Shown: positions 1,148 through 55,213, numbered from the stretch's first letter. The stretch: DNA of 55,985 nt from Saprospiraceae bacterium (GCA_019634125.1 JAHQVX010000054.1:1-55985); one strand, 5' to 3'. Translations and numbers: made by a program. The notes: a model not told the origin generated them from the sequence alone.

Positions 1148-3307
1148 TTAAAACTTCACATTCAATCCACCTAAGAAGTAAGTACCAGCTTGAGGGTAGT
1201 AATACTCTTCATAAATCGTTTCACCGCCAAAAATATAGCCGAAGGTATAGCCGTTTGCCTCGTAGTCTGTGTCGAATAGGTTGTTCACTCGTGCATTAAT
1301 ATCAATGGCTTTAATAAAGCCCGCATTCTCTGCAAGGGTAGCGTTGAGTGCTAAATTATTCACGAGATAAGCATCAATTTTCCGGCTTTCCGTCGACGTA
1401 TTATCTAGAAATTGATCGCCTACATACTTACTAATGAGGCTAACTTTTAAGCGGCCAGGAATTGGAGCGTACGCTATATTTCCACCTGCAATCACGTTTG
1501 GAGACAGCGCTAAATCGGTGTCTTCGTGAAAGACTTGTTGTGCACCACCATTGTCGAAATCATCAATATTCTCTACAAAGCTTTCGATTCGATTCTGGCT
1601 GAATGTGGCGTTGGCGGCGATTTCAAACTTCTCGTTTGGCTGCCAATTGGCCTCTAGTTCAACCCCTGCTCGATAGCTATCGTCTACATTCACGCGGGTA
1701 TAGGCACCCACATCATTTACCCCACCGGTTACAGCCAATTGATCTTTGTAATCCATGAAATAGAAATTCACCCCAGCATTGACCACGCCATTGTAGCGGT
1801 AGCCGAGTTCAAAATCGGTTAATTTTTCTGCAACAGGCAGTTGATCTGCTGGTGAGTCGGTATAATCGGAGCGATTCGGTTCTTTCTGAGCGACGGATAC
1901 GGAAGCATAAGCGGAGTTATCGCCCCCACGCCAAGTTAATCCCGCCTTCGGGTTGAAGAAATTGTGATCAACCGTTTGTGGGAGCGGTGTAACAGTACCT
2001 GACCCGTCTAATGCCAGTCCTTCGAAATCGTAGTTTACCCGGCGGAATTGTAAATCAACATAAGGGGTAAAGCCCGACTCGAAATCGTAGGTGTACTTGG
2101 AGTATATATTAAAGTCGGTCTTATCAGCATCATTAAAGTAATAATTCTGTCCAATTCGTTCTTGGGGAATGAACTGTCCAGAGATCACTTCTCCGAAGTG
2201 ATCCCCGAGGTATTTGTTCCATCCCCCACCCACTTTGATGTTGTGGGCATCTTGGTAGATATTAGTTGAAAAAATGGCTCCAAAGAAGTCGTTATCCAAC
2301 CAGCGTCTACGAACGAGGTCGGATTCGGTAATGGTTTGGCCTCCGATGACTTGATCGGCAATACCGTAATTGCCTAAACCGTCTTGCTCGCGAAATTCTT
2401 CGAAAAAGCCTTGACCTTTCGTGTAATGTAATCCGATGTCAAGACTTACATCATCGCTAAGTGGTTGATCTAGGAATAGCTGATAATGGTCTTGCTGGTA
2501 ATCGTCTACTTGGTTTTCGTAGGTATATGGGTTGAAGGTACGGTTGTTGGCGAGGATGCTTTCTTCGATACCAAACCAAGCTTGGTAGGTCACTTCATGG
2601 CCGGCGAAGGTGATGAATTTCAGTTGTCCATCAGTTGGGGAATCGCCGAGTTTATAGCTGGTATCGAAGTAATAGCTTTGTAGGTCGGAAGTGGCTCGAT
2701 CGATGAATCCGTCGGAGGTAATTTTCGATAGCCGGCCTTCTACTGTCCAGCGATCGTTGAGGAGTCCAGATCCAAATTTCACAGAGTTTCTGAGGGTATT
2801 GAATGTGCCGGCTGAGCCTGAATACTCTCCATATGCTTCTGCAGACGATGCTTGAGTTTGGAGGTGTAGGGAGGCGCCGAAGGCGCCGGCTCCATTGGTA
2901 CTGGTTCCAGCACCACGAACAAGGACCATATTATCTACCGAACTGGCAAAATCGGGCATATTGACCCAAAACACGCCTTGGCTTTCGGAATCATTTAGCG
3001 GCACTCCGTTAATGGTCACGTTGACCCGACTAGCATCGGAACCCCGAACGCGTAATCCGGTATACCCGACGCCGGCACCGGCGTCGGAAGTCGACACCAC
3101 AGAAGTTAGATTGTCTAATAAAATTGGAATGTCTTGGCCGAGATTAGAATTCTTTATAGAAGTAGAATCCAACACAGAAAAGGATACAGGATACTTGTCT
3201 AATACAATCGCTACGGGTTCTATTTTTTGATCTTCAATCTGAGCATAAAGACCAAGAGCTAATACATTCAATAATCCAATCAGCAAAAATCGTTTCATGT
3301 TTTGCAT
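1148..3307 (-). CDS. TonB-dependent outer-membrane receptor (putative thiamine-related transporter)
   Basis: 719 aa with signal peptide ...LGLYAQ and an N-terminal plug-like region (RVRGSDASRVNVTINGVPLND). Long beta-barrel with C-terminal ...YFLGGLNVKF ending in Phe. TPP riboswitch lies directly upstream. The start could instead be Met4 (3298). Confidence 0.9.
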   Translation of the reverse strand: MQNMKRFLLIGLLNVLALGLYAQIEDQKIEPVAIVLDKYPVSFSVLDSTSIKNSNLGQDIPILLDNLTSVVSTSDAGAGVGYTGLRVRGSDASRVNVTINGVPLNDSESQGVFWVNMPDFASSVDNMVLVRGAGTSTNGAGAFGASLHLQTQASSAEAYGEYSGSAGTFNTLRNSVKFGSGLLNDRWTVEGRLSKITSDGFIDRATSDLQSYYFDTSYKLGDSPTDGQLKFITFAGHEVTYQAWFGIEESILANNRTFNPYTYENQVDDYQQDHYQLFLDQPLSDDVSLDIGLHYTKGQGFFEEFREQDGLGNYGIADQVIGGQTITESDLVRRRWLDNDFFGAIFSTNIYQDAHNIKVGGGWNKYLGDHFGEVISGQFIPQERIGQNYYFNDADKTDFNIYSKYTYDFESGFTPYVDLQFRRVNYDFEGLALDGSGTVTPLPQTVDHNFFNPKAGLTWRGGDNSAYASVSVAQKEPNRSDYTDSPADQLPVAEKLTDFELGYRYNGVVNAGVNFYFMDYKDQLAVTGGVNDVGAYTRVNVDDSYRAGVELEANWQPNEKFEIAANATFSQNRIESFVENIDDFDNGGAQQVFHEDTDLALSPNVIAGGNIAYAPIPGRLKVSLISKYVGDQFLDNTSTESRKIDAYLVNNLALNATLAENAGFIKAIDINARVNNLFDTDYEANGYTFGYIFGGETIYEEYYYPQAGTYFLGGLNVKF

Positions 3308-3381
3308 TTATTTGCTTCCGAAATGTTTTAATAAATGGAAATTGAAAAGGCAGACTTTCCCCAAAGATTGGATAGCTATAG

Positions 3382-3463
3382 TGTTTTCCCTACGCCGGTA
3401 CAAGCCGGATCCGGTTCAAAGGGTGTAATCTCAGTCTCGGCTAAGCCGAGACACCCCTAAACA
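3382..3463 (-). promoter_or_regulatory. TPP (THI-box) riboswitch aptamer
   Basis: Minus-strand RNA reads UGUUUAGGGGUGUCUCGGCUUAGCCGAGACUGAGAUUACACCCUUUGAACCGGAUCCGGCUUGUACCGGCGUAGGGAAAACA. It contains the conserved GGGGUG, CUGAGA, ACCCUUUGAACC..GAUC, and GCGUAGGGAA blocks. P1 is UGUUU/AAACA. It sits about 75 nt upstream of the receptor start codon. Confidence 0.9.
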
Positions 3464-3491
3464 ATTTCTTTGGGCAAATGTAGCTTAGAAG

Positions 3492-5737: not shown

Positions 5738-7354
5738 TTAGTTTCCTCCTCCAGGGAATGGAGCAGCTGGGTTAGCTGAACCGTACTCACCAGGACGAGC
5801 AGAGCGTACATTTACAACATCGCCGAATCCATCAACAGAAGAGTAACGTACAATGATTCTATCTCTAGAAATTCCGTAAGTATCAACTAGTGCATTAGCA
5901 ACAGCTTGTGCTCTAGCGTAAGCCATTTGCTGACCTACTTTACGGCTTCCAGTAGCAAATCCTTCAATTACAACTCTACAGCTAGGGTTTCCAGCTAACA
6001 TAGAAGCGATTGATTGGATCTTAGCATTCTCGGCAGCAACTAAACGCTTAGAACCTTTTGTAAAGTTCACGCTTGGGTAAGCCATGTTAGCACATGGATC
6101 AGGGTTGCCGATTGGGTGTGTTCTGTGGTCTTCGAATTCTTTTCTTAATTCTTCAACCTCATCACAACAATGCTTGTCGATAATTTCAGTACAACCGTTC
6201 TCATCGATATCAGCACGCTGAGCAGCTGGAGTAAATGGACATGCATCTACACAGTCAGCAACACCATCTTTATCAGAATCGATAACAACACCAGAACCAT
6301 CAACGAAAGTACATGGAGAGTTAGGCTCTTTGTCTAAACGATCAATTACACCGTCACCATCTGCATCGTCGAATAAGTAATCAGGATCGAAAGAATATTC
6401 GTCTGTAAGGTGTGGGTAAGCGAAGTTTAAAGGATTCTCCCACCAAAGTGGCTGAACTCTTTTGTCTTTGTTACCAAGAGCAAACTCTAATTTTGCGTTA
6501 GTAGTGAATAACTGATCTTTGTCAGAAGAGAAATCGTTATCTGCAAAAGAGTCTGTTGGATCATCATAAGCTTCAGTATCAATCCAGTCAACCCAAGTAC
6601 GTGTGTAACGTGGCTCAAGACCAATCGCTAAACGATCAGAAGCTCTATAATTAAGACCTGCAGCAGCAGTAGCAACAGGAGTGAATACGTAATCGCCTTC
6701 TAAACCACCTCTACGAGTATCTCTAGGATCGTTGTAGTTGAAAACAGTACCGTTTGCAGCAGCAAGAGCAGCGTTTGTATTACCAGGAGCAGCCATTAAT
6801 GTAGTTTCTGTATCATATAAGATACCACCACCACCTAAAGATAAATCTAGGTTCCAACGGTTTTGCTCTCTATGGAAGTTAATATTATTTAAGTTCAATA
6901 CTAATTCTAAAGTAGCCTGGTGAATAGTAGCTTCGAAGTTGTCGAAGTGTAAACCACCTGCTAAGTCAGTTGTTCCAACTCGTTGAGTTGAATTAGAAGT
7001 ATTCATTTGTGAAACAGAATAGTCTTCTCCTTCTGGACGTTGGTAATCGTAACGTAATCTTAAAGAAGTAGCATATCCTAATGCTTTACGAAGGCTAGCT
7101 CCAACATTGTATCCAAATTCAGGATTTACATCACCAGAAACTTGTGCGTAACCGCCTTCGATTCCAAGTGCCCACATGTTACGTGGTTTAGCAGGAAAAC
7201 GGTACTCTCCATCAAGGAAAGCTTCGTGCTGGTCCATTCTTGATTGTGGGACCTGATCTTCATTTGGAGTCACATTGTCAACCTTTTCAAGCTGTGCGAA
7301 TGCAACAGTTGCTGTGAATAAAACAGCAAGAACTGAAAGTGTAAGTTTTTTCAT
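5738..7354 (-). CDS. OmpA-family outer-membrane protein with thrombospondin type-3 (Ca-binding) repeats
   Basis: Signal peptide MKKLTLSVLAVLFTATVAFAQ (start moved from 7420 to 7354). TSP3-like repeats DADGDGVIDRLDKEP and DSDKDGVADCVDACP. C-terminal OmpA domain with ...MAYARAQAVANALV. Confidence 0.85.
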   Translation of the reverse strand: MKKLTLSVLAVLFTATVAFAQLEKVDNVTPNEDQVPQSRMDQHEAFLDGEYRFPAKPRNMWALGIEGGYAQVSGDVNPEFGYNVGASLRKALGYATSLRLRYDYQRPEGEDYSVSQMNTSNSTQRVGTTDLAGGLHFDNFEATIHQATLELVLNLNNINFHREQNRWNLDLSLGGGGILYDTETTLMAAPGNTNAALAAANGTVFNYNDPRDTRRGGLEGDYVFTPVATAAAGLNYRASDRLAIGLEPRYTRTWVDWIDTEAYDDPTDSFADNDFSSDKDQLFTTNAKLEFALGNKDKRVQPLWWENPLNFAYPHLTDEYSFDPDYLFDDADGDGVIDRLDKEPNSPCTFVDGSGVVIDSDKDGVADCVDACPFTPAAQRADIDENGCTEIIDKHCCDEVEELRKEFEDHRTHPIGNPDPCANMAYPSVNFTKGSKRLVAAENAKIQSIASMLAGNPSCRVVIEGFATGSRKVGQQMAYARAQAVANALVDTYGISRDRIIVRYSSVDGFGDVVNVRSARPGEYGSANPAAPFPGGGN

Positions 7355-43539: not shown

Positions 43540-43998
43540 CTATGTTAATGTAGAGATCAGGGCAGTAGTTAACGTATCTAAATACGTAAACACAGATTCA
43601 AAATCCTTTTGACCGCCCTTGTATGGGTCAACGACCTCAGATTCATTTGAGGAGACGACAGAACTAAGCGGCTGTATCTTCTTAAATTGCCGCTCAGTTA
43701 CTGCCATCGCTCTCACCCGCGACAGATTATCTTCATCCATAGTATAGATTTGATCAAATCGATCTAGATCCGCATATTCCACTTGTCGAGCCCTCAAATC
43801 CTGTATGTCCACGTCGTTTTTCTGGGCAACGTCTATTGCCCTTGGATCTGGAGCCTTTCCAATATGCCAATGCCCCGTGCCCGCACTATCAATATAGACT
43901 GACTTACCAGATAGTGCAGCTTTTTTTCTGAGCAAGCCTTCCGCTATAGGAGATCTGCAAATATTCCCTTTACATACGATTAAAATGGATGTGTTCAT
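43540..43998 (-). CDS. low-molecular-weight protein-tyrosine phosphatase (Wzb-like; the arsenate reductase branch is less likely)
   Basis: P-loop VCKGNICRSP (CX5R-S) at the N-terminus and a DP general-acid loop (VVDPY). Confidence 0.9.
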   Translation of the reverse strand: MNTSILIVCKGNICRSPIAEGLLRKKAALSGKSVYIDSAGTGHWHIGKAPDPRAIDVAQKNDVDIQDLRARQVEYADLDRFDQIYTMDEDNLSRVRAMAVTERQFKKIQPLSSVVSSNESEVVDPYKGGQKDFESVFTYLDTLTTALISTLT

Positions 43999-44227
43999 GT
44001 GTACTAATTTTTCTCAAATGTCTTTCAACCAATTAAGAAGAATGAAGAATAAAGACCAAGCTGCAAAAAATTGAGATAAACGGTTTTTATCGCAAGAAAT
44101 AGCGCCGAATAGAGCATACAATTCCTGAATTTTTCCATTTATCGCGCTTCACCGCCAATCATCGCAATAGCTTCCATGCCGGTCGAATCTTTAAATGCTT
44201 AGCCCCAAAAAGCAGTTGCTTAGCAAC

Positions 44228-44986
44228 ATGAAAAGATCAATTCTGCTTATTGCTTTAGTATTAAACGTAAGTCTTGGGCTCGCTCAAGACTCTATCAATA
44301 TGGAGTTGAAAACCATTGAACTCAGTCATGGAAGATTAGCATTCAATAGTACGTCCATACTCCACCGAAGCACTATTAGTAGTACACTCCAAATGAATGA
44401 AACGAATCTGGGCATTCAACTTCACCATCTACAGCTCAATCAAGAAAGTGAGCAAACAATTGGTATAAACACCACACTATCGGGACAACGAACAAGTCAC
44501 CAGCTTAGTATTGCGGGTGGAGGAGATGTGTTGGCACCCAAATTCCAACTCGGATACTTTTCAACTACAAAGCGATCCGATTCATTAAGCTTTTTAGCCG
44601 GGGCGAATCTCATCTTCTTATCAGATCAGACAATAGGACTTGGTCAACAAGTTGGATGGATTCGAACTGCAAAAACACATACTCAAATCATCCGCATTTT
44701 CAATTCCAGTAATAAAGAGCAATATCTCGCACCCAATCTTCTCCTTGCATACTTGAAAGAATTTAACAGTAAAACACTCCTCCAACTCCACGCAGTAGGA
44801 GGCTATACACCTCAAAACGATCCATTATTGAAGTCTCAAACTCAAATTGGAAGTGGGGCTTGGTTACGCCAATCACTCGGAAGCCAGCTACAGATGAACT
44901 TATCTGTTAGCTATAACCATGCTTTCGAAGGCATTAGTACCAGCCAAGCCCGACTTTCTCTAGTTTATAAAATCAAAAATCAATAA
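44228..44986 (+). CDS. putative outer-membrane beta-barrel protein (YaiO-like size class)
   Basis: Signal peptide MKRSILLIALVLNVSLGLAQ (start moved from 44195). About 250 aa of alternating-hydrophobic strands and many Gln/Ser/Thr turns. First gene of the exopolymer module. Function is inferred. Confidence 0.4.
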   Translation: MKRSILLIALVLNVSLGLAQDSINMELKTIELSHGRLAFNSTSILHRSTISSTLQMNETNLGIQLHHLQLNQESEQTIGINTTLSGQRTSHQLSIAGGGDVLAPKFQLGYFSTTKRSDSLSFLAGANLIFLSDQTIGLGQQVGWIRTAKTHTQIIRIFNSSNKEQYLAPNLLLAYLKEFNSKTLLQLHAVGGYTPQNDPLLKSQTQIGSGAWLRQSLGSQLQMNLSVSYNHAFEGISTSQARLSLVYKIKNQ

Positions 44987-44987
44987 G

Positions 44988-45962
44988 ATGGACATGAATA
45001 CATATGTATTTGGTGGAAGTAACGACATTTCCATGTTGAAACTTCTCCTGAAAGAAGAACCAGCTATTACCTACATGCCCTTTAAGCAATCTATTCGACA
45101 AGGTTTACAAAAGTTAAATTGCAAAGGCATTGTAGTCTTAGCGAAACGAAGAACGATGGCCAATGCCTGCAAGTTATTAGATGCGATTAAACAATCCATC
45201 CCGAGTTGCCCAATAGTACTCATTTCAGCAATAAAAGACTCCGACTTACTCTATAAGGCGTTGAAAGTAAATTTGGTAGACCTTATTATCACCGACCAGC
45301 AACAACAAATCCTTGAAAGCGTTCGGAAGGCTTTTTTACTTATGCCTCAAAACAGTCCAAGGAAGCGCATTCTTGCGATTGGTGCCCACCCAGATGATAT
45401 TGAAATCGGTTGTGGTGGAACACTGCTCAAGCATCAAGAACAAAACCACGACATCACTATCCTTACGTTAACACAAGGAAGTAATGGTGGCAACAAAGCA
45501 AAACGGGTAGGAGAAGCCCAACGTGCCGCAGAGTTTATAAATAGCAAGCTTATTATCACGGATTTGCCAGACACTAAACTTTCTGAAGGCAACCCTACAA
45601 TTGGAATTATTCAAGACGCCATCAAGGCCAGTCGACCTGATATTATTTATACCCACAGCTTGAACGATACCCACCAAGACCATCGAGCTACTTACAATGC
45701 GACATTAGTTGCAGCGCGTTCGGTATCACAAGTATTTTCCTATTTGGCCCCCTCAACGAACGTGGCATTCACTCCAAACCATTTTGAAGTGATATGCCCG
45801 TTCATAGACCAAAAACAAACACTGATCAATTTTCATGTTTCGCAAACGCAAGGCATGGGACGCCCATACTTAACACCTTCAATTATTAAATCAACCGCAC
45901 AGTACTGGGGACGTTTTGCTAATTACTCGTACTGTGAACCTTTTGAAGTCATAAAATCGTAA
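44988..45962 (+). CDS. PIG-L/LmbE-family de-N-acetylase with an N-terminal degenerate receiver-like domain
   Basis: C-terminal domain has ILAIGAHPDDIEIGCGG and THQDH (Zn/His motifs of PIG-L/MshB/BshB). The N-terminal 120 aa or so have beta-alpha periodicity but lack the receiver Asp pocket. No signal peptide. Confidence 0.8.
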   Translation: MDMNTYVFGGSNDISMLKLLLKEEPAITYMPFKQSIRQGLQKLNCKGIVVLAKRRTMANACKLLDAIKQSIPSCPIVLISAIKDSDLLYKALKVNLVDLIITDQQQQILESVRKAFLLMPQNSPRKRILAIGAHPDDIEIGCGGTLLKHQEQNHDITILTLTQGSNGGNKAKRVGEAQRAAEFINSKLIITDLPDTKLSEGNPTIGIIQDAIKASRPDIIYTHSLNDTHQDHRATYNATLVAARSVSQVFSYLAPSTNVAFTPNHFEVICPFIDQKQTLINFHVSQTQGMGRPYLTPSIIKSTAQYWGRFANYSYCEPFEVIKS

Positions 45963-45964
45963 TC

Positions 45965-46936
45965 ATGAAAAAGACAAATGTTTTAATTACAGGTGCTGGT
46001 GGTCCAGCTGCTATTTGCGCATTCAAAGCATTAGCAAACGAAAAAAATATTGAATTATTTATGGCCGACATGAGTGCTCTGGCCAGTGGCCTATACTTAG
46101 TCCCGCCTGAAAGAAGAATGTGTATTCCTCGTGGGAATCATGAAGCCTTCGCAGATAATTTGCTAAAAAAATGCATCGAAAAGAATATTTCCATCGTATT
46201 CTCTACAGTAGATGATGAACTACTTCCTCTAGCAAAAAGAAAATCAGAATTTCAGAGGAACGGGATTCAACTATGTATTGCCGAAGAACAATCCCTCCAA
46301 ACCATTCTGAATAAGCACGCCCTATTGGAGCGCTTACAGCGAGCAGGGTTGGAAGTTGGGGCATTTGCCAAGCTAACAGAATTGGACACCACTCAATTCC
46401 CAGATACATCAATTGTAGTAAAACCCCAATCAGGGAGTGGTTCTAGAGGCGTGTGCTTTTATGACTCCTTAGACGAAATCCCCAAGCATAAGTTCAATGA
46501 CCAAGAATTAATGGTACAAGAGCAATTTCAAGGACAAGAATACAGTGTAGACATGTTCATGTTTCCATCAGGACGCATTTTAGCTTGTGTGCCGCGAATT
46601 CGAATGCGGACAGATAGCGGTGTATCTGTGACGGGTCAAGTCGTGAATAACCTTCGAGTAATCAGTTATGCCAAGGAAGTCGTGAAGATTTTAGGCCTAC
46701 CCTACGCGGCGAATGTACAAATCATGGATACTGCTGAAGGGCCAAGGCTGATCGAAATCAATCCGCGTTTCTCGGGCGGCCTGAGTTTAGTCGTTCAAGC
46801 AGGAGCAAACACACCTAAAATGGCTTTAGAGGCGATGATGGGCAAAGAAGTTCAACCTGTTTATCAATTCAATGAAGTAGGCATGGTGCGTTATTTCACA
46901 GAACACTTCACCAACGAACTAATAGCATTGTGTTAA
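45965..46936 (+). CDS. ATP-grasp ligase (CarB-like ATP-binding fold)
   Basis: VVKPQSGSGSRGV, QEQFQGQEYSVDMF and IEINPRFSGG are canonical ATP-grasp blocks. No signal peptide. Confidence 0.8.
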   Translation: MKKTNVLITGAGGPAAICAFKALANEKNIELFMADMSALASGLYLVPPERRMCIPRGNHEAFADNLLKKCIEKNISIVFSTVDDELLPLAKRKSEFQRNGIQLCIAEEQSLQTILNKHALLERLQRAGLEVGAFAKLTELDTTQFPDTSIVVKPQSGSGSRGVCFYDSLDEIPKHKFNDQELMVQEQFQGQEYSVDMFMFPSGRILACVPRIRMRTDSGVSVTGQVVNNLRVISYAKEVVKILGLPYAANVQIMDTAEGPRLIEINPRFSGGLSLVVQAGANTPKMALEAMMGKEVQPVYQFNEVGMVRYFTEHFTNELIALC

Positions 46937-48417
46937 ATGCGTTAGCCATAGTATTTACTGGCCTCGTGATTTTCAGTAGTTTACCACTCTTTACCTCGTT
47001 ATACCAGTTTTTACTGGTCGGCATTCATGGGTATAAGAACCACTACTGTAAAACGAAACCAATCACGCCAAGAGTAGCCATTATTATTCCTGCTTGGAAT
47101 GAAGGCAGTGTAATCGGAACGACCATTGAGCAGCTCTATGGCATGGACTATCCGAAAGATGCATTGCGGATTTATGTGGTAGATGATGCGAGTACAGATG
47201 ACACCCCTACGATTTGTAAAACCATGCACGAGAAATATCCAGACAATGTATTTCACCTTAGGCGGGAGAATGGTGGGCAAGGCAAGGCACATACTTTAAA
47301 CCATGGTATAGAAATCATATTAAGTGAAACCTGGGCAGAAGCGTTTTTAATCATGGACGCAGATGTTTTATTTGAAAACGATGCCCTCCGCAAGATGTCT
47401 AGACATCTTGCGGACCCCGAAGTCGGCTCCGTAACTGCATACATCAAAGAAGGAAGCAGTCCAGGCAATTATATCTCGAAATGCATTGCATTTGAGTACA
47501 TTACCGCACAAGCAGCAAGCCGGCGCGCTCAAAATATCATGGGGAAAATGGCTTGTCTAGCAGGAGGCGCCCAGCTGCACACTCGGGAAAACCTCCTCGC
47601 TATTGGAGGACGTATAGACACGTCATCCTTGGCAGAAGATACTTTTACCACATTCAACACGCAATTAAATGGCCGAAAAGCCGTCTTCGATGGCAATGCT
47701 ATTGTATGGGCTGAAGAACCCGATAATGTAGTTGGAGTTTGGAAACAACGCCTGAGATGGGCACGTGGGAATGTGCAACTTACCAAAGCATTTAAACACG
47801 TTTGGTTCAACCGGAAAAAAGGACTAAGACTCGGAAGCGCAGATTTCGGCATTTTATGGTTCGCCATTATTTTAATGCCGTTCTTTATGATTTTTGGGGC
47901 TATTGGATTAGTGGCTCTCTTCTTTATCGATTTCCCGTTGTCTTGGTTTCTCTTTAAACAATTTTGGATCTTGAACTCCATCGTCTACCTCTTCGTGACG
48001 TTGTTTTCATTTGGGATTGACCCCTTCACCGCCAAGCGATCTTGGGTTCAAGGCCTACTATTTCCAGGTCTGATTTCATTAATTATTATTGTGTTGTCAG
48101 CTATTCCAGGCTTATTAGAGCATTTATTAGCGCTTGGGAATCCACCTTCAGGTCAAACACTTACCTGGTACGCACAATTAATCGTACTGTTTATGTATAG
48201 TTGGCTAGCCCTTTGTATGCTAGTGACCTATTGGGCCTACCTTCTAGAAAAAAATTATAACTATAGGACATTAGCTAAGTGGCTAATCATTATTTCAGGA
48301 TTCGGGCCATTGCTTTGCGCAATTACGCTTCAATCCTACATTTCTGAATGGAAAAAAACCGAATTAAAATGGGACAAGACCGAGAAAAGCGGCAAGGTGA
48401 AAGTGATGAGCAGCTAG
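46930..48417 (+). CDS. processive family-2 glycosyltransferase / polysaccharide synthase (PgaC/IcaA/NodC/BcsA-like)
   Basis: N-terminal TM, then IIPAWNE, VVDDASTDDT, IMDADV (DxD), LAEDTF (ED) and QRLRWARG (QxxRW), then 4 or more C-terminal TM helices. GTG start overlaps the ATP-grasp stop by 7 nt. Confidence 0.85.
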   Translation: MLNALAIVFTGLVIFSSLPLFTSLYQFLLVGIHGYKNHYCKTKPITPRVAIIIPAWNEGSVIGTTIEQLYGMDYPKDALRIYVVDDASTDDTPTICKTMHEKYPDNVFHLRRENGGQGKAHTLNHGIEIILSETWAEAFLIMDADVLFENDALRKMSRHLADPEVGSVTAYIKEGSSPGNYISKCIAFEYITAQAASRRAQNIMGKMACLAGGAQLHTRENLLAIGGRIDTSSLAEDTFTTFNTQLNGRKAVFDGNAIVWAEEPDNVVGVWKQRLRWARGNVQLTKAFKHVWFNRKKGLRLGSADFGILWFAIILMPFFMIFGAIGLVALFFIDFPLSWFLFKQFWILNSIVYLFVTLFSFGIDPFTAKRSWVQGLLFPGLISLIIIVLSAIPGLLEHLLALGNPPSGQTLTWYAQLIVLFMYSWLALCMLVTYWAYLLEKNYNYRTLAKWLIIISGFGPLLCAITLQSYISEWKKTELKWDKTEKSGKVKVMSS

Positions 48418-48578
48418 AACAATTCTACGAAGTACTCGATAAAGATAGGAAAGAAGAACGTCGTTTATCTAAGGTACAAGTAGTCGTTTTGTTTGGGATT
48501 GGTGTAGGTGTGTTTTTGAGAGAATGGTTTTTTCCATCCAAGCTAGCTTGGATGGAATTCCTCCAACAACTATTATAA
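48369..48578 (+). CDS. possible small single-TM protein (candidate synthase accessory subunit)
   Basis: 69-aa ORF (from ATG 48369) overlapping the GT2 3' end by 49 nt in another frame. Charged N-half, then the hydrophobic segment VQVVVLFGIGVGVFL. It fills an otherwise empty 163-nt convergent gap. No homology evidence. Confidence 0.3.
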   Translation: MGQDREKRQGESDEQLEQFYEVLDKDRKEERRLSKVQVVVLFGIGVGVFLREWFFPSKLAWMEFLQQLL

Positions 48579-48580
48579 GG

Positions 48581-49282
48581 CTAGAGTAAATTCAAGGCTT
48601 CCACTAACTTCATCTTATTCGCTCGACTCACAGGAATCACCTCTTGGTTCACAAGTATACTGTTGTCCTCAATGTCTACAATCTTATGTAGGTTGACAAT
48701 ATAGCTTCTATGAATTCGCATAAATGATTTAGCAGGCAGTTTCTGTTCGATCTTCTTCATACTCGAACGAACAATATGCTGCGCTTGCTGATCCATCTTA
48801 ATCAAGGCATAATCTCCCTTGGCTTCTATCAGTGCTATCTTATCAAAAGCAAGACGTGTTAATCGTCCGTCTACATTGATGTACATGTCGGCATCTTGCT
48901 CTACCTGCACCTCGGCAGGGGTAATCCTAGTCTGTGGCTTTACCCGTTCAATGGCTTTTAAAAATCTGGGGAGCTGAATAGGCTTCACTAAATAATCCAG
49001 TGCATTCACCTCAAAAGCCTCAATGGCTTTACTCTGGTCGCCCGTCGTGAAAATCACATTTGGCGGATCTATCGTACTCTTGAAAAAATCCATGCCATTG
49101 ATCTCAGGCATATGAATGTCTAAAAAAATCAAATCAATATCCTTTCGATTATTTAAAGTAGTCAGCGCCTTGATTGGATTATCAAATTCACCAATTACTT
49201 GAAGATAGTCCACCTTACTGCAAAGTATGCTTAAATTTTTTCGTGCTACTGGATCATCATCAATAATTAAACACTTGATCAT
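48581..49282 (-). CDS. LytTR-family DNA-binding response regulator
   Basis: Receiver (LIIDDD..., FLDIHMP, DYLVKP) plus LytTR domain (FMRIHRSYIVNLHKI). ATGA overlap with the upstream gene. Confidence 0.9.
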   Translation of the reverse strand: MIKCLIIDDDPVARKNLSILCSKVDYLQVIGEFDNPIKALTTLNNRKDIDLIFLDIHMPEINGMDFFKSTIDPPNVIFTTGDQSKAIEAFEVNALDYLVKPIQLPRFLKAIERVKPQTRITPAEVQVEQDADMYINVDGRLTRLAFDKIALIEAKGDYALIKMDQQAQHIVRSSMKKIEQKLPAKSFMRIHRSYIVNLHKIVDIEDNSILVNQEVIPVSRANKMKLVEALNLL

Positions 49283-49926
49283 TTTATTCGTTTTTCAATC
49301 GTCAACAAATACAAGTCAATAGCTGCATCAACAGCCCGACTTTGAATTTCTGTTAGTGCTTGTCCATTTTGAGTTTGTAGAGCTAAGACTTCAAACAAGT
49401 CTTGCTCTTTAGGGTATCCAAAATACTTAGAATAATTCGCTAAATTATGATAAGTATAATATTGTTCAACAACCGGCACATTCATAGATACTGTTGCCTT
49501 TGCTTTTTTCAACTGCTCGTCCAAAATGACTAGCATTTCTTGAAGTTCTTCTTCTGTCTCACAGTAATCATCTAGCTGTAGCCGTGAAGCAAGCTCAGAT
49601 TCGATAGTGGGAAGCGCCTGTTCACCCAACACACCATTGAGTGCATCGAGACTTAATGGCTTGCTCAAAAAAAGAACAGCATCTTCTAAACTTGATTGGG
49701 AATGGTTACTTACGATTACAAAAGGAACTTTAAATCGGTCAACATAATCGGTCACATCATCCAAGCCAACATAATAATCAGACAAAAGGAAGTCAAAAGC
49801 CTCAGAATTCGCGAAGAAATCATCGAAATGAGAAAAAAGTTGAAGGCGCACAGATGTATTCTTGAACAAACGCCGGTAATAGGCTTGCTCTACTTTGTCG
49901 TCCTCTATAATAGCCAGTTTTAGCAT
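49279..49926 (-). CDS. receiver domain protein with a C-terminal helical HPt-like domain
   Basis: Start at MLKLAIIEDD (TAATG overlap with the upstream RR stop). Receiver residues: EDD pocket, LLSDYYV, VIVSN, LSKPL. The C-terminal 100 aa or so are helical, with HNLANYSKYFG partly matching the HPt motif HxLKGSSxxLG. Confidence 0.6.
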   Translation of the reverse strand: MLKLAIIEDDKVEQAYYRRLFKNTSVRLQLFSHFDDFFANSEAFDFLLSDYYVGLDDVTDYVDRFKVPFVIVSNHSQSSLEDAVLFLSKPLSLDALNGVLGEQALPTIESELASRLQLDDYCETEEELQEMLVILDEQLKKAKATVSMNVPVVEQYYTYHNLANYSKYFGYPKEQDLFEVLALQTQNGQALTEIQSRAVDAAIDLYLLTIEKRIK

Positions 49927-50339
49927 TAAGCCACACTTTGACTCGTCATCCAATATTGGGTAATCAGTTGTATCGTGTCTTGATACTGTACGTTGGAATT
50001 GGGTTTCACTATATATCCAGCGGCTTGTAATAAGTGCGCTTGTTCAATATCCTTTGGGTTTTTTGAAGTCGTTAGAATAACAACTGGAATTCGCTTCAAA
50101 TAATGATCTTGTTTGACCAATTCCAGTAACTCAAGGCCATTCATCAGTGGCATATTCAAATCAAGGATAATCAGCTGAGGTGGAGCATGTTTGTTGGACT
50201 CCAACCATTTCAGAGCTTCAGACCCATCATTAAAGCTTTCAATGCTCAATTCGGGATTATCACTTTTTTTCAGGGCACGCTCAAACTTCTTGTGCTCCAG
50301 AAAATCGTCGTCTACAAATAAAATCGTTTTCTTGTCCAT
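49926..50339 (-). CDS. single-domain CheY-like response regulator
   Basis: 137 aa. ILFVDDD, LIILDLNMP, VVILTTS and GYIVKP. Confidence 0.9.
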   Translation of the reverse strand: MDKKTILFVDDDFLEHKKFERALKKSDNPELSIESFNDGSEALKWLESNKHAPPQLIILDLNMPLMNGLELLELVKQDHYLKRIPVVILTTSKNPKDIEQAHLLQAAGYIVKPNSNVQYQDTIQLITQYWMTSQSVA

Positions 50340-51541
50340 TACAGTTTTGTGTGTTGTTTGTTTAGGGAAAATGTGAACGTAGTACCTTGTCCTTCTTTAG
50401 AATCGACGATAATCGTACCTCCATAATGCTCACAGATTTTTTTCACGATCGCAAGTCCAACACCTGTTCCTTTCGTCTGTTCATTCAACGTTGAGAACAT
50501 GGTAAATATCTTGTCGAAATATTTAGCGGGAATTCCAATGCCATTATCTTGTACAGAAAACAAATAATGACTGGAGGTTTCCCAAGATTTCACCAGAATT
50601 TTCACTACGTCTTTGTCGTTATACTTCACGCCATTCGTGAGTAGATTTTGAAAGATATGTTGAAGTTGTGATCGAGCTATTTTTAATACCGGGAAGTCAC
50701 CCTCTAAACTCAATTGAAATTGCTGAGGTACATCGATCATCTCAGATACATATTTAACTAAAGCTTTCGTGTCAACTTCTGTTTCTGTATTTTCGGTTCC
50801 TACCTGCGCATACTCTAAAATTCCATCGATTAAACTGAATGCCTTTCCTATTCTACTTTCTATCTCTTGAAGGTGTTCTAATGCCTCTCCTTTAAAGGCT
50901 TCAGCATGATCTTCTTTTAACCAACCTACTAATGTATTCACAGCTCTCAATGGCGATTTTAGATCATGAGAAACCACTTGAGCAAAGGCATCTAATTCTT
51001 TATTCTGACTTTGAAGCGTTTGAATTAAGGTGGCTTGCTTCTCTTCGGCTTCTACTAGAAACTGAATATCCTCAATAATGGCTAAATGGTAGCGCGTGCT
51101 CCCGTCTTGGTTCAAGACGGGAGAAACTTTTGTTTTAGCCCAAAACAGGCTGCCATCCTTCCTTCTATAGCGTTTTCGCAACTCAAACTGATCGACTTGT
51201 TGAGCGATCAATGCATTGGTGAGCTGGTACGATTTCGATACATCTTCTTTATAAGTGAGGTCTTTAATGGTTAACGCTTTCAGTTCTTCCACTGCATAAC
51301 CCATCATTTCGCCAAACTTGGAGTTCACCGTTTTAATATCGCCATTACTGGTTAATGCAATTCCAAACACGGCATTTTCAAACAAATGAATCAAATCCGA
51401 TTCTAGTTCGCCGTTCAGTTGTTCTAACTTCTGGTTATTCTGATAGAGTTCAAGAGATTTCTCTTCTAGAATCCGCTCTGCTTCTTGCCGAGCAGCGATT
51501 TCTCTCTGAAGTTTTTTCTCCAATAACTCTATGGCCTCCAT
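50339..51541 (-). CDS. cytoplasmic PAS-domain sensor histidine kinase (HnoK-like by context)
   Basis: N-terminal coiled coil, PAS domain, H-box VSHDLKSPL, N/G boxes LLTNGVKY, DNGIGI and GTGVGLAIVKK. No TM segment. Start lies 2 nt after the H-NOX stop. Confidence 0.9.
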   Translation of the reverse strand: MEAIELLEKKLQREIAARQEAERILEEKSLELYQNNQKLEQLNGELESDLIHLFENAVFGIALTSNGDIKTVNSKFGEMMGYAVEELKALTIKDLTYKEDVSKSYQLTNALIAQQVDQFELRKRYRRKDGSLFWAKTKVSPVLNQDGSTRYHLAIIEDIQFLVEAEEKQATLIQTLQSQNKELDAFAQVVSHDLKSPLRAVNTLVGWLKEDHAEAFKGEALEHLQEIESRIGKAFSLIDGILEYAQVGTENTETEVDTKALVKYVSEMIDVPQQFQLSLEGDFPVLKIARSQLQHIFQNLLTNGVKYNDKDVVKILVKSWETSSHYLFSVQDNGIGIPAKYFDKIFTMFSTLNEQTKGTGVGLAIVKKICEHYGGTIIVDSKEGQGTTFTFSLNKQHTKL

Positions 51542-51543
51542 GC

Positions 51544-52083
51544 TTATTTTTTACTGATGGTAAATCTTACTTTACTTCCATCTTCTTCGATAAACTCTTT
51601 GTCTAACCGAAACGCCTCATTGTAATGTTCCATTGTAGCTTCAATGAGTCCCTCAGCTAGGGCATACATTTTCTTACTACTCGTATAAACCATATCCATA
51701 CTGCCATCTGGATGATCAATAGTTGCGAAATGAGGCAAGTCGGCATCAGGATAAATCTTCCGTACTTCCACATGAATGTAGTCATGTACGCCACTTAGGA
51801 AGGAAAAACTATCGCTGCTATTCTCAAATAATGCTGGATAAGAAGCTACAAATGTTTGGAGTAAGTGCTTTCCAAAAGCCTTAATGAGTGCATTGGCATC
51901 CGTATCGGTACGTTGACTTAACGCGCCTACAAGTCGGTAAATCTCTTTGTGATCATACGTGCCGACTTTGGTATAAGCGCCATGATTAGGCAGTTGCGCA
52001 TCGTCAATAATGTTTTGAACCATTTCTAATCCGAAATGCGTTTCCACCATATCAAACAACTCGGTAAATACTATTCCTTTCAT
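51544..52083 (-). CDS. H-NOX (heme nitric oxide/oxygen-binding) sensor protein
   Basis: 179 aa from MKGIVFTELFDMV. Collinear with remembered bacterial H-NOX proteins (MKGIIFNVLEDMV..., ...IHDVIHLEVNKLY...). Candidate proximal His in GVHDYIHVEV. The propionate-binding motif is present as YTSSK, where the canonical form is YxSxR. Confidence 0.85.
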   Translation of the reverse strand: MKGIVFTELFDMVETHFGLEMVQNIIDDAQLPNHGAYTKVGTYDHKEIYRLVGALSQRTDTDANALIKAFGKHLLQTFVASYPALFENSSDSFSFLSGVHDYIHVEVRKIYPDADLPHFATIDHPDGSMDMVYTSSKKMYALAEGLIEATMEHYNEAFRLDKEFIEEDGSKVRFTISKK

Positions 52084-52174
52084 AATTGTATACAAACTAC
52101 GTACATAAAACACGCCAAATGCGTCTTATGCGACGAATGGTAAATATCTTGAGATGAATGGAAATATTGAGCGA

Positions 52175-55100
52175 TTATTGGTTTGGCTGCTGCAAATCAA
52201 ACACCTCATAAATGGCTTCTTGGATTTGCGGCCGGATATCTTCTGTGATCAGCTTTTTATTATCCATAGTTGGGTGTACTCGGTTAGACAGGAAAATGAA
52301 GATGAGGTTGTTTTCAGGATCTGCCCAGGCACATGTTCCGGTAAAGCCAGTATGACCGAAAGCTGAAGCAGGCGTACTCTCGCTCGTCGGGCCAATTTTA
52401 TTGCGGTCGGTTTCAGGCTTGTCAAAGCCTAAACCACGGCGACTTTTCTGGCTGTAACGCCGAGTAAAATACTCAATCGTACTGGGTTCAAAATACTTTT
52501 GCCCACCGTACGTGCCTTTATTTAAAAGCATTTGCATGTAAATAGCTAAGTCGTTGGCGTTGCTAAAGACACCTGCATGACCACCGACTCCATCTTGCAT
52601 AGCTGCACCCATATCGTGTACATAACCATGTACAAGCTGATTCCGCCAATACTCGTCTTTCTCTGTGGGAACAATCTTATTCAATGGAAAACGCTTTGTT
52701 GGATTATAGCCCATTGTACTCATACCTAAAGGCTGGTAAAACGTTCGTTCGACAAACTCTTCCAGCGGCTGACTATACTGTTCTTCCAACATGTGTTGAA
52801 AGAGATAGTACCCTAAGTCGCTGTATACATAACGACCTCGCGGATTATTGTCGGCTTTCAAGATCTTCATCATCATTGAATCCTTGGGATAATTGGACTG
52901 CAAGTACATGCCTTTTGCAATCTCAATGTCTTTGCCCGAACTTTTAGTTCGGGCATATAGGTTGTTCAACTTCCCGTCTTCGGTCAATGTCGACGTGTAG
53001 AACGGAATCCAACTTTTCAGCCCTGAAGTGTGGTTTAATACCTCGGCAATTTTCATATTGGCCTTATTGGAGCCTTTCGTGATGAATAAGTGCTGCTGCA
53101 GTTGATCTTCCGGATGAAACACCCCACGCTCATAGCCAAACATCAACGCTGGCAAGGTGGATGAAATTTTCGTAATCGAAGCCACATCATATACATCGTT
53201 GAGTTGCACCCGACGCTTCCTCGAATACGTATGATGTCCAAATGCTTTATGATATACGATTTTATTGTCTTTAGCGACTAGGAGCTGACAGCCCGGCGTG
53301 GCTTTAATGGAGATAGCTGCTTTGGCAATAGAATCCAGCTTATAAAACGCATGATCTTCTAGGCCAATTTCGTAGGGCTGTGCGTGTTTAATGCGCATGT
53401 TACCCGTTGTAATATTGCCGTAGTTGACCGGTAGATACCCGGCTGCCACCGGCAGCCGGCCTTCAAAGCCAATCACACCCATAATGGCTTCAGCGGCGGC
53501 TTTCTGAGCCTCGGCTGCGCCATCGTACCCGCAGATGACCGTGCGGTAATTCACAAAGTTTTCAATACTGTACGGATTGCCAAATACCGACAACACCAAC
53601 TTATTCTGATCGTTGAGCTGACGTAAAAATGTTTTTGTGGCTAACGAAATACCGTAGCCCCTAGAACTGTAGCGGCTTTGGTTCACCAGACCCACCAGCA
53701 CCATATTGTAGCCTTCCAAGCGCTTGAGCAAGTTGTTATAGCTCACTTCCGAGTCCGAAGCACTGACCGAAAAATGCGTCATGGGGGCATAGTTGTCTAA
53801 GGTCGACTGGAAGGGCGTTAGCTTGCCGTCATTAATGCTTACCGTAGCGATTTTGAGCTTGCTCAAATCGCTTAATGGCAGCTTTAAATCATCGTTTTTC
53901 ACCAAGGTAATCGACTTTTCATGAAGTTGCTGCTTCAACAACTTCACCGACCCTTGATTAATATCATCTGTAACATGTTGCGGATTTGATGTAGCTACAT
54001 TCTCGAGGATTCCCAACCATCTTTTAGCATAAAGGATCTTCCGAACACTGGCATCGATACGACTTTCGGTGATTTCCCCCGTTTGCAATGCCGATTTAAT
54101 CGCTTGAAACGCTTTCGGTACATCTACAGAGAAGAGTAAAATATCATTACCGGCTTTTATGGCTTCCACTTCGATAGTGCCAGGAGGAAAGGTATTGGTT
54201 ACGCCTTTCATATTCAGGGCGTCGGTAATGATTAAGCCATCAAAGCCCATTTCATTGCGTAAAACACCAGTTACGATGGGCGTAGATAAGGTAGACGGGC
54301 GATTTGGTGACGGATCAAGGGCTGGAATATTCAAATGGGCAATCATCATAGCCCCAAGTCGGTTCTCAATCATTTGCCGAAAAGGATAGAACTCTAGACT
54401 ATCTATGCGTCGCCGGTCGTGGTTAATTTGCGGCAATGTGAGGTGACTGTCTTTATCGGTATCTCCATGACCGGGAAAGTGCTTGGCAGTTGCCAATACG
54501 CCCGCATCGTGCAGGCCGCGCATGTAGGCCGTTCCTTTATTGGCTACTTGAAACATATTCTCCCCAAAGCTTCGGTCGTTAATTACGGGATTGTTGGGGT
54601 TGTTGTTCACATCTACGACGGGGGCGAAGTTCATGTGAATGCCCATGCGCTTGCATTGACGGCCAATTTCAAAGCCCATATTGTAGATGTATTGATCATC
54701 CTGAATCGCGCCCAGCGTCAGCTGGCGCGGAAACTGCACCGTACTATCTAAACGCATATCCAAGCCCCACTCTGCATCAATGGAGACCATGAGTGGAATA
54801 CGTGCTTGCGCTTGTAAGTCATTGGTGAATGCTACTTGTTGCGTAGGCGATGATGTTTTTTTACTGTCGCGAAACAAGGCCACACCACCTAGATGATAGT
54901 CTTTCACTAAAGCCTTGGCCCGCTTGACTTCCGCCGGTCCTTTATTGGTGTAGACGGCACTCATGAAGAGCTGACCAATTTTCTCTTCCACCGTCATTTC
55001 TGCCAGCTTCGTCTCCACCTCAATACTGGCCGACTCTAGTGCTTGAACAGGTTTGGATTTCTTTTTGGGCACATCTAAGGCCGCATAAATCGGCGTGTTC

Positions 55101-55213
55101 TTCACGCGTTCATCAATTACATTGTCTGCATCAGGTGTATCTACCAAACCTGCACTACTACATTCAAACAATAAGGTAATGGCCAACAAAAAAACTCTCA
55201 AGATCGTATTCAA
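52175..55213 (-). CDS. exported GH3 beta-N-acetylhexosaminidase fused to a serine beta-lactamase/PBP-fold domain
   Basis: 1012 aa with a signal peptide. GH3 NagZ block KHFPGHGDTDKDSH and ITDALNM. C-terminal domain with SxxK (ASITK), YSD and HTG motifs. Confidence 0.85.
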   Translation of the reverse strand: MNTILRVFLLAITLLFECSSAGLVDTPDADNVIDERVKNTPIYAALDVPKKKSKPVQALESASIEVETKLAEMTVEEKIGQLFMSAVYTNKGPAEVKRAKALVKDYHLGGVALFRDSKKTSSPTQQVAFTNDLQAQARIPLMVSIDAEWGLDMRLDSTVQFPRQLTLGAIQDDQYIYNMGFEIGRQCKRMGIHMNFAPVVDVNNNPNNPVINDRSFGENMFQVANKGTAYMRGLHDAGVLATAKHFPGHGDTDKDSHLTLPQINHDRRRIDSLEFYPFRQMIENRLGAMMIAHLNIPALDPSPNRPSTLSTPIVTGVLRNEMGFDGLIITDALNMKGVTNTFPPGTIEVEAIKAGNDILLFSVDVPKAFQAIKSALQTGEITESRIDASVRKILYAKRWLGILENVATSNPQHVTDDINQGSVKLLKQQLHEKSITLVKNDDLKLPLSDLSKLKIATVSINDGKLTPFQSTLDNYAPMTHFSVSASDSEVSYNNLLKRLEGYNMVLVGLVNQSRYSSRGYGISLATKTFLRQLNDQNKLVLSVFGNPYSIENFVNYRTVICGYDGAAEAQKAAAEAIMGVIGFEGRLPVAAGYLPVNYGNITTGNMRIKHAQPYEIGLEDHAFYKLDSIAKAAISIKATPGCQLLVAKDNKIVYHKAFGHHTYSRKRRVQLNDVYDVASITKISSTLPALMFGYERGVFHPEDQLQQHLFITKGSNKANMKIAEVLNHTSGLKSWIPFYTSTLTEDGKLNNLYARTKSSGKDIEIAKGMYLQSNYPKDSMMMKILKADNNPRGRYVYSDLGYYLFQHMLEEQYSQPLEEFVERTFYQPLGMSTMGYNPTKRFPLNKIVPTEKDEYWRNQLVHGYVHDMGAAMQDGVGGHAGVFSNANDLAIYMQMLLNKGTYGGQKYFEPSTIEYFTRRYSQKSRRGLGFDKPETDRNKIGPTSESTPASAFGHTGFTGTCAWADPENNLIFIFLSNRVHPTMDNKKLITEDIRPQIQEAIYEVFDLQQPNQ

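Follow-up and report, generated by a model that had tools for sequence, protein, structure and literature searches.

Five translationally coupled open reading frames (ORFs), running from position 52083 to position 48581 on the minus strand of a 55,985-nucleotide (nt) stretch of DNA from Saprospiraceae bacterium (GCA_019634125.1, JAHQVX010000054.1:1-55985; this whole stretch is hereafter called the window), encode an H-NOX protein, a PAS histidine kinase, a single-domain receiver, a protein of 215 amino acids (aa) and a REC-LytTR response regulator, in this order. We consider it fairly probable that these proteins form a cytoplasmic, haem-based gas-sensing phosphorelay, and that the exopolysaccharide operon next to it is under its transcriptional control. 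This reading starts from direct observations, namely the gene content and its coupling, the identity of the domains, the conserved phospho-residues, the synteny and the conserved boxes. What is known of H-NOX signalling comes almost wholly from Proteobacteria, in which the signal passes via cyclic di-GMP (c-di-GMP) enzymes or via borrowed histidine phosphotransfer (HPt) proteins of quorum-sensing or syp pathways; the window locus and its relatives indicate that, in a large clade of Bacteroidota H-NOX proteins, the connection is to LytTR transcription factors instead. With its unusual completeness, the locus gives access to H-NOX signalling in Bacteroidota: since 9 kb hold everything from sensor and relay to the predicted operator sites and the probable target operon, the chain from signal to output is testable with few proteins and one promoter fusion. 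Related loci in other genomes are referred to below by labels such as L009, and the features of the window are collected in Table 1.

Table 1. Features of the relay and of its surroundings in the window; the last column gives protein identity between the window and its orthologues in the two loci of conserved gene order, L009 and L010.
Feature	Position	Strand	Properties and predicted phospho-sites	Basis or context	Identity (L009/L010)
H-NOX haem sensor	51544..52083	-	179 aa, soluble, no Cys	PF07700 E 8.6e-40	
PAS-HisKA-HATPase histidine kinase	50339..51541	-	400 aa, soluble, phospho-His 192	Pfam PAS, HisKA, HATPase_c	
Single-domain receiver	49926..50339	-	137 aa, Asp60, Rcp-like	PF00072 E 6e-21	
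REC-HPt phosphotransfer protein (gene 4)	49279..49926	-	215 aa, Asp50, His160	Profile, alignment, AlphaFold2 (AF2) model	about 28-33 %
REC-LytTR response regulator	48581..49282	-	233 aa, Asp55	PF00072 E 2e-19 and PF04397 E 9e-20	55-69 %
Convergent exopolymer module, probable target	44195..48578	+		Pfam and NCBIfam; order conserved in L009 and L010	
GT2 synthase					72 %
PIG-L de-N-acetylase					45-59 %
ATP-grasp ligase					47-49 %
Conserved small ORF	48369..48578	+	69 aa, single transmembrane (TM) segment, MGQNRE...RExFFPS	49-nt overlap with GT2 3' end	36-39 %
Low-molecular-weight (LMW) phosphotyrosine-phosphatase-family gene	43540..43998	-		Divergent from exopolymer operon, shares box-bearing intergenic region	46-55 %
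Candidate LytTR boxes	44053..44104	+	Exact AGATAAACGG at 44074-44083, weaker copies 21 bp either side	Upstream of exopolymer operon	
Direct repeat	52129..52164	+	TGCGACGAATGGTAA / TGAGATGAATGGAAA, 15-nt, 21-bp spacing	In 91-nt region upstream of H-NOX	
GH3 (NagZ-like) and beta-lactamase-family fusion	52175-55213	-	1012 aa	91 nt upstream of H-NOX	

The initial annotation of this DNA had given the gene order as H-NOX, PAS histidine kinase, CheY-like response regulator, REC-HPt-like protein and LytTR regulator, and the five ORFs and their domains agree with it. The junctions that it listed (a 2-nt gap, TAATG, TAATG and ATGA) read TAA-gc-ATG, TAATG, TAATG and ATGA in the sequence, and its claim of a single operon likewise holds. 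A minus-strand scan inside the operon gave no convincing terminator or promoter that would break the five-gene run, while a scan for the sigma-70 consensus gave fewer matches than shuffled sequence and is hence uninformative. Two starts differ from simpler gene calls: the TTG at 49953 of a mechanical ORF list was replaced for gene 4 by the ATG at 49926, which gives the TAATG junction, and a GTG upstream of H-NOX was dropped in favour of the ATG at 52083, with which the protein begins MKGIVFTE..., as in all homologues. None of the five relay proteins has a hydrophobic segment of the membrane-spanning type, so the relay is taken to be cytoplasmic, and Pfam detects no GGDEF, EAL or HD-GYP domain in the relay operon of the window.

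The binding of haem and of nitric oxide (NO), the order of phosphotransfer, the binding to DNA and the direction of the effect are what we infer from these genes, and they would combine as follows. H-NOX would bind NO at its ferrous haem, and would dock on the kinase, probably via a conserved helix at the N-terminus of the latter. In characterised pairs, NO-bound H-NOX inhibits the partner kinase (PMC8738867); by analogy with all of these pairs, autophosphorylation at His192 would be lowered by NO-bound H-NOX. Phosphate would move from His192 to Asp50 of the REC-HPt protein, then to His160 of the same protein, and finally to Asp55 of the REC-LytTR regulator, with a flux that falls with NO. The Rcp-like receiver (Asp60) would be a side branch accompanying H-NOX; it would either drain phosphate as a sink and so sharpen the off-response, or serve His160 as another donor. 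The phosphorylated LytTR regulator would bind boxes of the AGATAAACGG type in front of the GT2 / ATP-grasp / PIG-L operon, where they follow each other at 21 bp, and probably in front of its own operon as well. NO would in this way change, upwards or downwards, the output of a polymer of the N-acetylglucosamine (GlcNAc) type, partly de-N-acetylated.

The central step of this route is predicted for gene 4, whose product is identified, by profile comparison and modelling, as a free-standing REC-HPt protein; its homologues are the REC-Hpt tails of hybrid kinases encoded behind H-NOX in related genomes. Neither the whole protein nor its halves gave a meaningful match in Pfam (E <= 10), Hpt PF01627 included, or in NCBIfam, and a word-indexed homologue search returned the query alone. 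An exhaustive HMMER search of 1.84 billion protein representatives yielded seven relatives (eight sequences with the query), and an added profile search brought the family to about 13 known sequences; a metagenome scan with the REC-HPt alignment returned one short, uninformative contig. Columns I7, E8, D9, D10, V12, D50, K89, P90 and H160 are invariant in the 13-sequence alignment, and position 73 is Ser or Thr, which together make up the full catalytic set of a receiver, joined by one His in the helical half. The context of His160 is IHK(A/V)LNKIxxLG in most members and YHNLANYSKYFG, with Gly at +10, in the window; the family motif is close to the classical HPt signature of the ArcB type.

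Searched against the PDB, the gene 4 profile matched the receiver of NtrC1 (1zy2, E 1.7e-6), and its C-terminal half weakly matched the Hpt-type structure 3myf (E 0.012). The comparison by hhalign with the REC-Hpt tails of three H-NOX-linked hybrid kinases extended over 218 columns (probability 98.1 %, E 7.9e-14) and placed His160 onto the Hpt His of these kinases; Pfam recognises the Hpt domain in two of the tails (L005 and L007), while that of L004 is without a Pfam Hpt match. With the 13-sequence alignment as input, AF2 gave a model of pLDDT 83 (the single-sequence model reached 43 and was unusable), which contains a receiver fold at residues 3-100, a disordered linker at 106-115 and four long helices at 125-214, with His160 in the second of them. 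Foldseek searches with the whole model returned receivers at TM-scores of 0.6-0.74; these matches are dominated by the receiver half and give no separate verdict on the helical half. The label 'REC-HPt-like' of the initial annotation is thus borne out by family conservation, profile-profile comparison and the structure model, rather than by Pfam or NCBIfam, and gene 4 defines a small REC-HPt family which is missed by present domain libraries.

The same chain is found in fused form elsewhere. Loci L004, L005/L006 (a Haliscomenobacter metagenome-assembled genome) and L019 carry H-NOX, then a hybrid kinase of 833-835 aa with the domains PAS-PAS-HisKA-HATPase-REC-Hpt, and then a REC-LytTR regulator. 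These operons resemble that of the window in their H-NOX proteins (50-53 % identical), in their LytTR regulators (40 % identical, as determined for those behind the hybrid kinases of L004 and L005), in the chain of phospho-sites and in the N-terminal helix of the kinase. They differ in that a single protein with two PAS domains combines kinase, receiver and Hpt, where the window has three genes and one PAS domain; in the window, the REC-HPt part has diverged beyond recognition by Pfam. Because related H-NOX operons carry the same chain fused, the window relay is, as judged from sequence, a split version, enlarged by one receiver, of a design that recurs in Bacteroidota. This also bears on the earlier statement that the architecture is undescribed. 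Full-text literature searches yielded no paper describing an H-NOX pathway with a LytTR regulator, the co-mentions of both words being unrelated, and in this sense the statement stands; the architecture is not unique, since at least three other lineages have H-NOX / hybrid HK-REC-Hpt / REC-LytTR operons. In another H-NOX lineage, L007/L008 and L017 contain H-NOX and a hybrid HK-REC-Hpt, with no LytTR gene, directly beside a polysaccharide cluster of the Wzx/Wzy type, and the association of H-NOX with exopolysaccharide therefore recurs with another polymer pathway.

Two diverged loci preserve the whole neighbourhood of the split form. L009 (JGI metagenome sample 3300001262, contig label BBAY74) has the complete order, with H-NOX, kinase, receiver, REC-HPt and LytTR genes, the convergent small ORF, GT2, ATP-grasp, PIG-L and a 261-aa protein, and the divergent LMW phosphatase. 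L010 keeps the order of L009 minus H-NOX and the single-domain receiver, and its orthologues are identical to those of the window at 37 % (kinase), 33 % (REC-HPt) and 69 % (LytTR regulator) of positions. Pseudogene remnants of H-NOX or of the receiver were sought in L010 by tblastn, with no match even at E = 10. Given that L010 has kinase, REC-HPt protein and LytTR regulator without the extra receiver, the conserved core path would lead from the kinase to the receiver of the REC-HPt protein, to its own His and on to the LytTR regulator. H-NOX and the Rcp-like receiver would then be an added pair, serving as input or sink. This receiver, which is present in L009 and L011 and absent from L010, finds its best PDB matches among phytochrome-associated single-domain regulators (6xvu, RcpB, RcpA and Rcp1), and the receiver of the hybrid kinases is matched both by it and by the receiver half of gene 4. 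The LytTR regulator scores above the Pfam cut-offs for both of its domains (PF00072, 70.2 bits; PF04397, 71.1 bits), and its nearest NCBIfam model is BtsR (127.6 bits, cut-off 246), while LytR gives 105.4 bits (cut-off 375). It lies below every equivalog cut-off of NCBIfam, and is therefore not an equivalog of a named regulator there. As a separate observation, the H-NOX frame of L009 has ATT at 5873-5880 where its relatives have an ATG start (IKAHTVFNEF versus MKGIVFTEF), owing either to an AUU start or to a sequencing error; the gene caller began 10 codons downstream.

A plain two-component system, in which the kinase phosphorylates the LytTR regulator directly, and in which the receiver and the REC-HPt protein are sinks, modulators or a connector to a partner encoded elsewhere, would use the same genes. 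Such a scheme has the default pairing of a HisKA kinase with a co-operonic DNA-binding regulator on its side, as well as the competition of three receivers for one kinase and the branched multi-receiver H-NOX networks known in Shewanella and V. cholerae (PMC8738867). It accounts poorly for the relatives in which HK-REC-Hpt is a single polypeptide and the gene of the orthologous LytTR regulator comes next, for the invariance of the HPt His and of all receiver catalytic residues across the gene 4 family, and for the fact that every family member with readable context (L009, L010, L011 and L014) sits between a kinase gene and a LytTR gene. We therefore regard the two-component arrangement as rather unlikely, and retain the phosphorelay through gene 4.

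At the input of this phosphorelay, the window H-NOX protein matches Pfam HNOB PF07700 with 136.7 bits (cut-off 25.5) over profile positions 1-159 of 163. The closest solved relatives are 6bde/6bdd (E 6e-44), followed by 6ocv and Shewanella structures. Its nearest homologue in a search among 5.8 billion proteins is only 55 % identical, and the named matches come mostly from Bacteroidota (Spirosomataceae, Haliscomenobacter, Pontibacter and Emticicia). An exact-sequence look-up of the 179-aa protein returned no matching record, and an H-NOX scan of a genome collection consisting of species representatives, with the window's own genome not included, gave only 3 distant loci of other architectures. 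Residues were compared in an alignment with 120 homologues and Tt H-NOX (1u4h), the numbering of which is used here. The equivalents of the proximal His102 and of Pro115, Tyr131 and Ser133 are kept, and are invariant across the 120 homologues. The distal positions Tyr140, Trp9 and Asn74, which form the O2-binding hydrogen-bond network in Tt H-NOX, are all three Leu, so that the pocket is by its residues of the non-polar, NO-selective (non-O2-binding) type. At 51670-51684, the protein reads YTSSK, with Lys at Arg135 of the Y-x-S-x-R haem-propionate motif; this position is R in 107 homologues, C in 9, H in 3 and K in 1, the sole K being that of the window protein.

The kinase follows directly upon H-NOX, across the 2-nt gap, and its boxes are complete (H-box SHDLK at 191, NGVKY, DNGIG and GTGVGL). 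Like kinases of the HnoK, HahK and HqsK type, it is encoded in the same operon as H-NOX, is soluble with no TM segment, and possesses the H, N, G1 and G2 boxes. Residues 1-33 (window 51442-51541) carry the motif L..KLxRExxARxxAExxLExKxxEL, which is common to seven of the seven kinases behind H-NOX genes (those of the window, L009, L004, L005, L007, L001 and L002) and extends over three phyla, namely Bacteroidota, Alphaproteobacteria (L001) and Myxococcota (L002). The orthologous kinase of L010, where H-NOX is missing, has an unrelated N-terminus in which the helix motif is absent. As the helix occurs in all H-NOX-adjacent kinases and is absent from the orthologue of the H-NOX-less L010, it is probably the H-NOX-coupling element, and a candidate docking site for H-NOX on the kinase.

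The sensor might respond to something other than NO, be it another ligand or the redox state of the haem, or it might have lost its haem, or else the PAS domain of the kinase could be the real input. The replacement of Arg135 by Lys would be in keeping with this, as would the L010 module, since it works without H-NOX and its PAS kinase thus has its own input; moreover, oxidative activation of H-NOX proteins has been reported (PMC12329717). A thiol or zinc redox switch in the window H-NOX is excluded, as the protein contains no Cys; the retained equivalents of the proximal His, Pro115, Tyr131 and Ser133 and the non-polar distal pocket speak for NO, and the 2-nt junction between H-NOX and kinase genes, together with the co-occurring kinase helix, argues for a working partnership. 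A signal other than NO is, in our estimate, very unlikely, and NO is kept as the predicted input.

The probable target lies tail-to-tail with the relay operon. The exopolymer module consists of genes for a 263-aa signal-peptide protein, a PIG-L de-N-acetylase, an ATP-grasp ligase, a processive GT2 synthase and a 69-aa TM protein. The initial annotation had placed the 3' end of the LytTR gene 163 nt from that of the GT2 gene; the distance is correct (stops ending at 48581 and 48417), and the conserved 69-aa ORF lies inside it. As this ORF fills the 163 nt, the convergent units end 2 nt apart. The small ORF occupies the same position, with the same 49-nt overlap with GT2, in the window, L009 and L010, and may encode a synthase partner resembling PgaD/IcaD. 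Within its 3' end, 24 nt past the LytTR stop, lies a perfect palindrome of 26 nt, TTCCATCCAAGCTAGCTTGGATGGAA, at 48532-48557. It was rejected as an intrinsic terminator, having no downstream T-run on either strand, being located inside the small ORF and not being conserved in L009 or L010; it could act as a bidirectional transcription barrier between the convergent operons.

The GT2 protein has the Q-x-x-R-W motif and scores 124.2 bits with TIGR03937 (PgaC/IcaA) against a cut-off of 422.3, and is therefore no equivalog. In its general plan, the module resembles modules for poly-N-acetylglucosamine (PNAG; pgaABCD or icaADBC), as it comprises a processive GT2 followed by a small membrane protein, a de-N-acetylase and a protein of the outer-membrane type. 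It differs from them in the GT2 score below the PgaC/IcaA cut-off, in a deacetylase of the PIG-L/LmbE type and in the extra ATP-grasp ligase; the deacetylases PgaB and IcaB are of the CE4 type. By its gene content, the module would work like a PNAG synthase module without being a member of that group, and the gene set suggests that amines set free on a GlcNAc polymer are acylated again. The synthesis of mycothiol and bacillithiol, in which a deacetylase is followed by a ligase, offers a parallel to the combination of GT2, PIG-L and ATP-grasp genes (44195-48417). A literature search on this gene set found no paper; the locus draws attention to a GT2 / PIG-L / ATP-grasp pathway for exopolymer, as yet uncharacterised, in marine bacteria associated with surfaces.

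That the adjacent exopolymer operon is the candidate target, as had been proposed earlier, is now supported by the synteny of the neighbourhood in two diverged loci and by repeats with a period of 21 bp in the promoters of three genomes. The gene order is kept despite strong divergence of the proteins (Table 1), which argues for the relay and the exopolymer neighbourhood as a functional unit. The LMW phosphatase gene has the same position in L009 and L010, and its LMWPc counterpart stands behind the LytTR gene in L014; by synteny, it appears to belong to the system.

For almost all LytTR regulators, the binding sites consist of two or more repeats of 9-11 nt with spacers of 11-13 nt (PMC4847170). 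The exopolymer promoter of L010 contains AGATAAACGG, AGATAAACGG and CGATAAACAA at exact steps of 21 bp (scores 10, 10 and 7 of 10), and that of L009 has AGATAAATCA, AGTTCAATGG and AGATAAGCAG at the same steps (7, 7 and 8 of 10). With the window copies included, the geometry of the candidate boxes in the three promoters, that is, 10-nt repeats with 11-nt spacers, fits the reported LytTR sites, and 21 bp is the best spacing among 15-27 bp in each box region. As a background test, 456,486 positions were scored on both strands for three copies at 21-bp spacing. Triples of at least 21/30 were found at six of them: three overlapping registers in L010, the exopolymer promoters of L009 and of the window, and a site immediately upstream of H-NOX in L009. 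A direct repeat in front of the relay operon of the window was found both by an unbiased repeat finder and by a period scan, and its second copy (TGAGATAAACGG) agrees with the exopolymer-promoter box at 10 of 12 positions. The pair scores 14/20, a value which occurs 33 times in the 456,486 positions. These repeats are suggestive of autoregulatory LytTR boxes; autoregulation is put at this strength because the relay-promoter boxes lie on the opposite strand and the motif score is modest. Two further observations concern similar repeats. A box copy with one mismatch, AGATAAACGA, lies at 48461-48470 on the minus strand, inside the small ORF at the tail-to-tail junction, and is probably due to chance. 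T-rich repeats with a period of 21-22 bp occur near the fused operons (GGTTKTTTGG at 13522-13575 of L005 and TTTTGGTWGA at 6936-6975 of L004); they are of low complexity and could be the LytTR boxes of those regulators.

It is also conceivable that the exopolymer operon is not the target, its proximity reflecting co-inheritance or transcriptional interference, and that the LytTR regulator controls genes elsewhere. Convergent units only 2 nt apart could interact via read-through or antisense transcription; L004, L005 and L019 have the trio of H-NOX, HK and LytTR without this exopolymer module, and in L014 the REC-HPt and LytTR genes are followed directly by LMWPc. Against this stand the 21-bp box triples, which mark the exopolymer promoters of all three genomes and are nearly absent from the remainder of the 456 kb scanned, and the order of ten genes, kept at protein identities of 28-72 %. 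A target elsewhere accordingly seems distinctly unlikely, and the exopolymer operon is preferred.

Several points weigh against the proposed NO-responsive relay and its assignment to this operon. As the box motif came from L010, one of the three loci, only the window and L009 are independent tests, both of them positive. Matches to the motif in the window are not above chance (2 against 3.6 expected), and the box evidence consequently lies in position and in conservation across genomes. The window copy adjoining the exact box is weak (6/10), and the boxes of the relay promoter are inverted with respect to the operon in the window and co-directional with it in L009. Furthermore, the HPt half of gene 4 is without a Pfam match and reaches only E 0.012 with a solved Hpt structure. 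The exchange of Arg135 for Lys in H-NOX is conservative, and the affinity for haem could be altered, since it is the haem-propionate Arg that is replaced. Finally, a kinase of the HisKA type could also pass phosphate straight to the LytTR regulator.

As far as function is concerned, the closest known analogue of the predicted relay is HnoX-HahK of Vibrio fischeri, whose signal reaches SypG, and with it the syp polysaccharide locus, through LuxU and the HPt domain of SypF (PMC12369376, PMC8738867). Both have an operon of H-NOX and kinase. In V. fischeri, NO-bound H-NOX restrains the kinase, and phosphate runs from a receiver over an HPt to a response regulator that binds DNA and switches both the polysaccharide locus and biofilm (PMC12369376, PMC8738867). 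In V. fischeri, a gammaproteobacterium, the HPt steps are borrowed from SypF and LuxU, which are encoded elsewhere, and the output is SypG, whereas the window has its own REC-HPt protein, a LytTR output and one operon abutting its target, in a Bacteroidota-like genome. The Hno network of Shewanella oneidensis and Vibrio cholerae (H-NOX, HnoK, HnoB, HnoC and HnoD) is similar in that one kinase serves several receivers; one of these receivers, HnoC, is a transcription factor that feeds back on the hno genes, and the outcome is control of biofilm (PMC8738867). Its output, unlike that of the window, is mainly c-di-GMP turnover (a phosphodiesterase and its inhibitor), and it has no HPt step and no LytTR domain. 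The pathway from H-NOX-HqsK to LuxU and LuxO in V. harveyi and V. parahaemolyticus likewise leads from a kinase via an HPt to a transcriptional regulator (PMC8738867, PMC6759604). In this case, HqsK is a hybrid kinase that feeds LuxU, the shared quorum-sensing HPt, while the HPt of the window is fused to its own receiver and dedicated to its operon. On the output side, the REC-LytTR architecture and the repeat-type sites recall matrix-polymer regulators of the AlgR type and regulators of the BtsR/YpdB type (PMC4847170); unlike LytS or partners of the 5TM type, the partner kinase here is a soluble PAS kinase.

Hence, the logic that leads from H-NOX via a kinase and an HPt to a transcription factor and a polysaccharide is already established in Vibrio, and the fused form of the H-NOX / HK-REC-Hpt / LytTR chain is common but unstudied in related genomes. 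What is new in the window is the LytTR output, a dedicated, strongly diverged REC-HPt protein, the placing of the relay in one operon directly beside the probable target, the Bacteroidota setting and the polymer module. Taken together, these features might represent an H-NOX pathway with LytTR output and an NO-sensing circuit defined in Bacteroidota, each the first of its kind. Sensor, kinase, sink receiver, a REC-HPt family not recognised before, regulator, cis boxes and target operon would make up a cassette complete in itself, in which NO directly switches an unusual GlcNAc-type polymer, de-N-acetylated by PIG-L and possibly re-acylated by the ATP-grasp ligase, and in which H-NOX and the extra receiver are an add-on input gained or lost as a unit, as L010 suggests. 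We offer this joint reading tentatively, as a possibility that falls somewhat short of being probable.

Some further features of the window lie beside these main subjects. The PIG-L protein has a conserved N-terminal domain of about 120 aa (44988-45350, plus strand) with a faint similarity to receivers (PF00072, E 0.014), which looks like a pseudo-receiver; it was rejected as a fourth phospho-acceptor, being without the acidic pocket and the phospho-Asp. The GH3-beta-lactamase gene upstream of H-NOX was ruled out as a member of the operon or cassette, since L009 has a different gene at that position. Lastly, a thiamine pyrophosphate (TPP) riboswitch (RF00059, 68.4 bits, E 2e-11) is located at 3370-3468 on the minus strand, upstream of a minus-strand ORF at 1148-3307.

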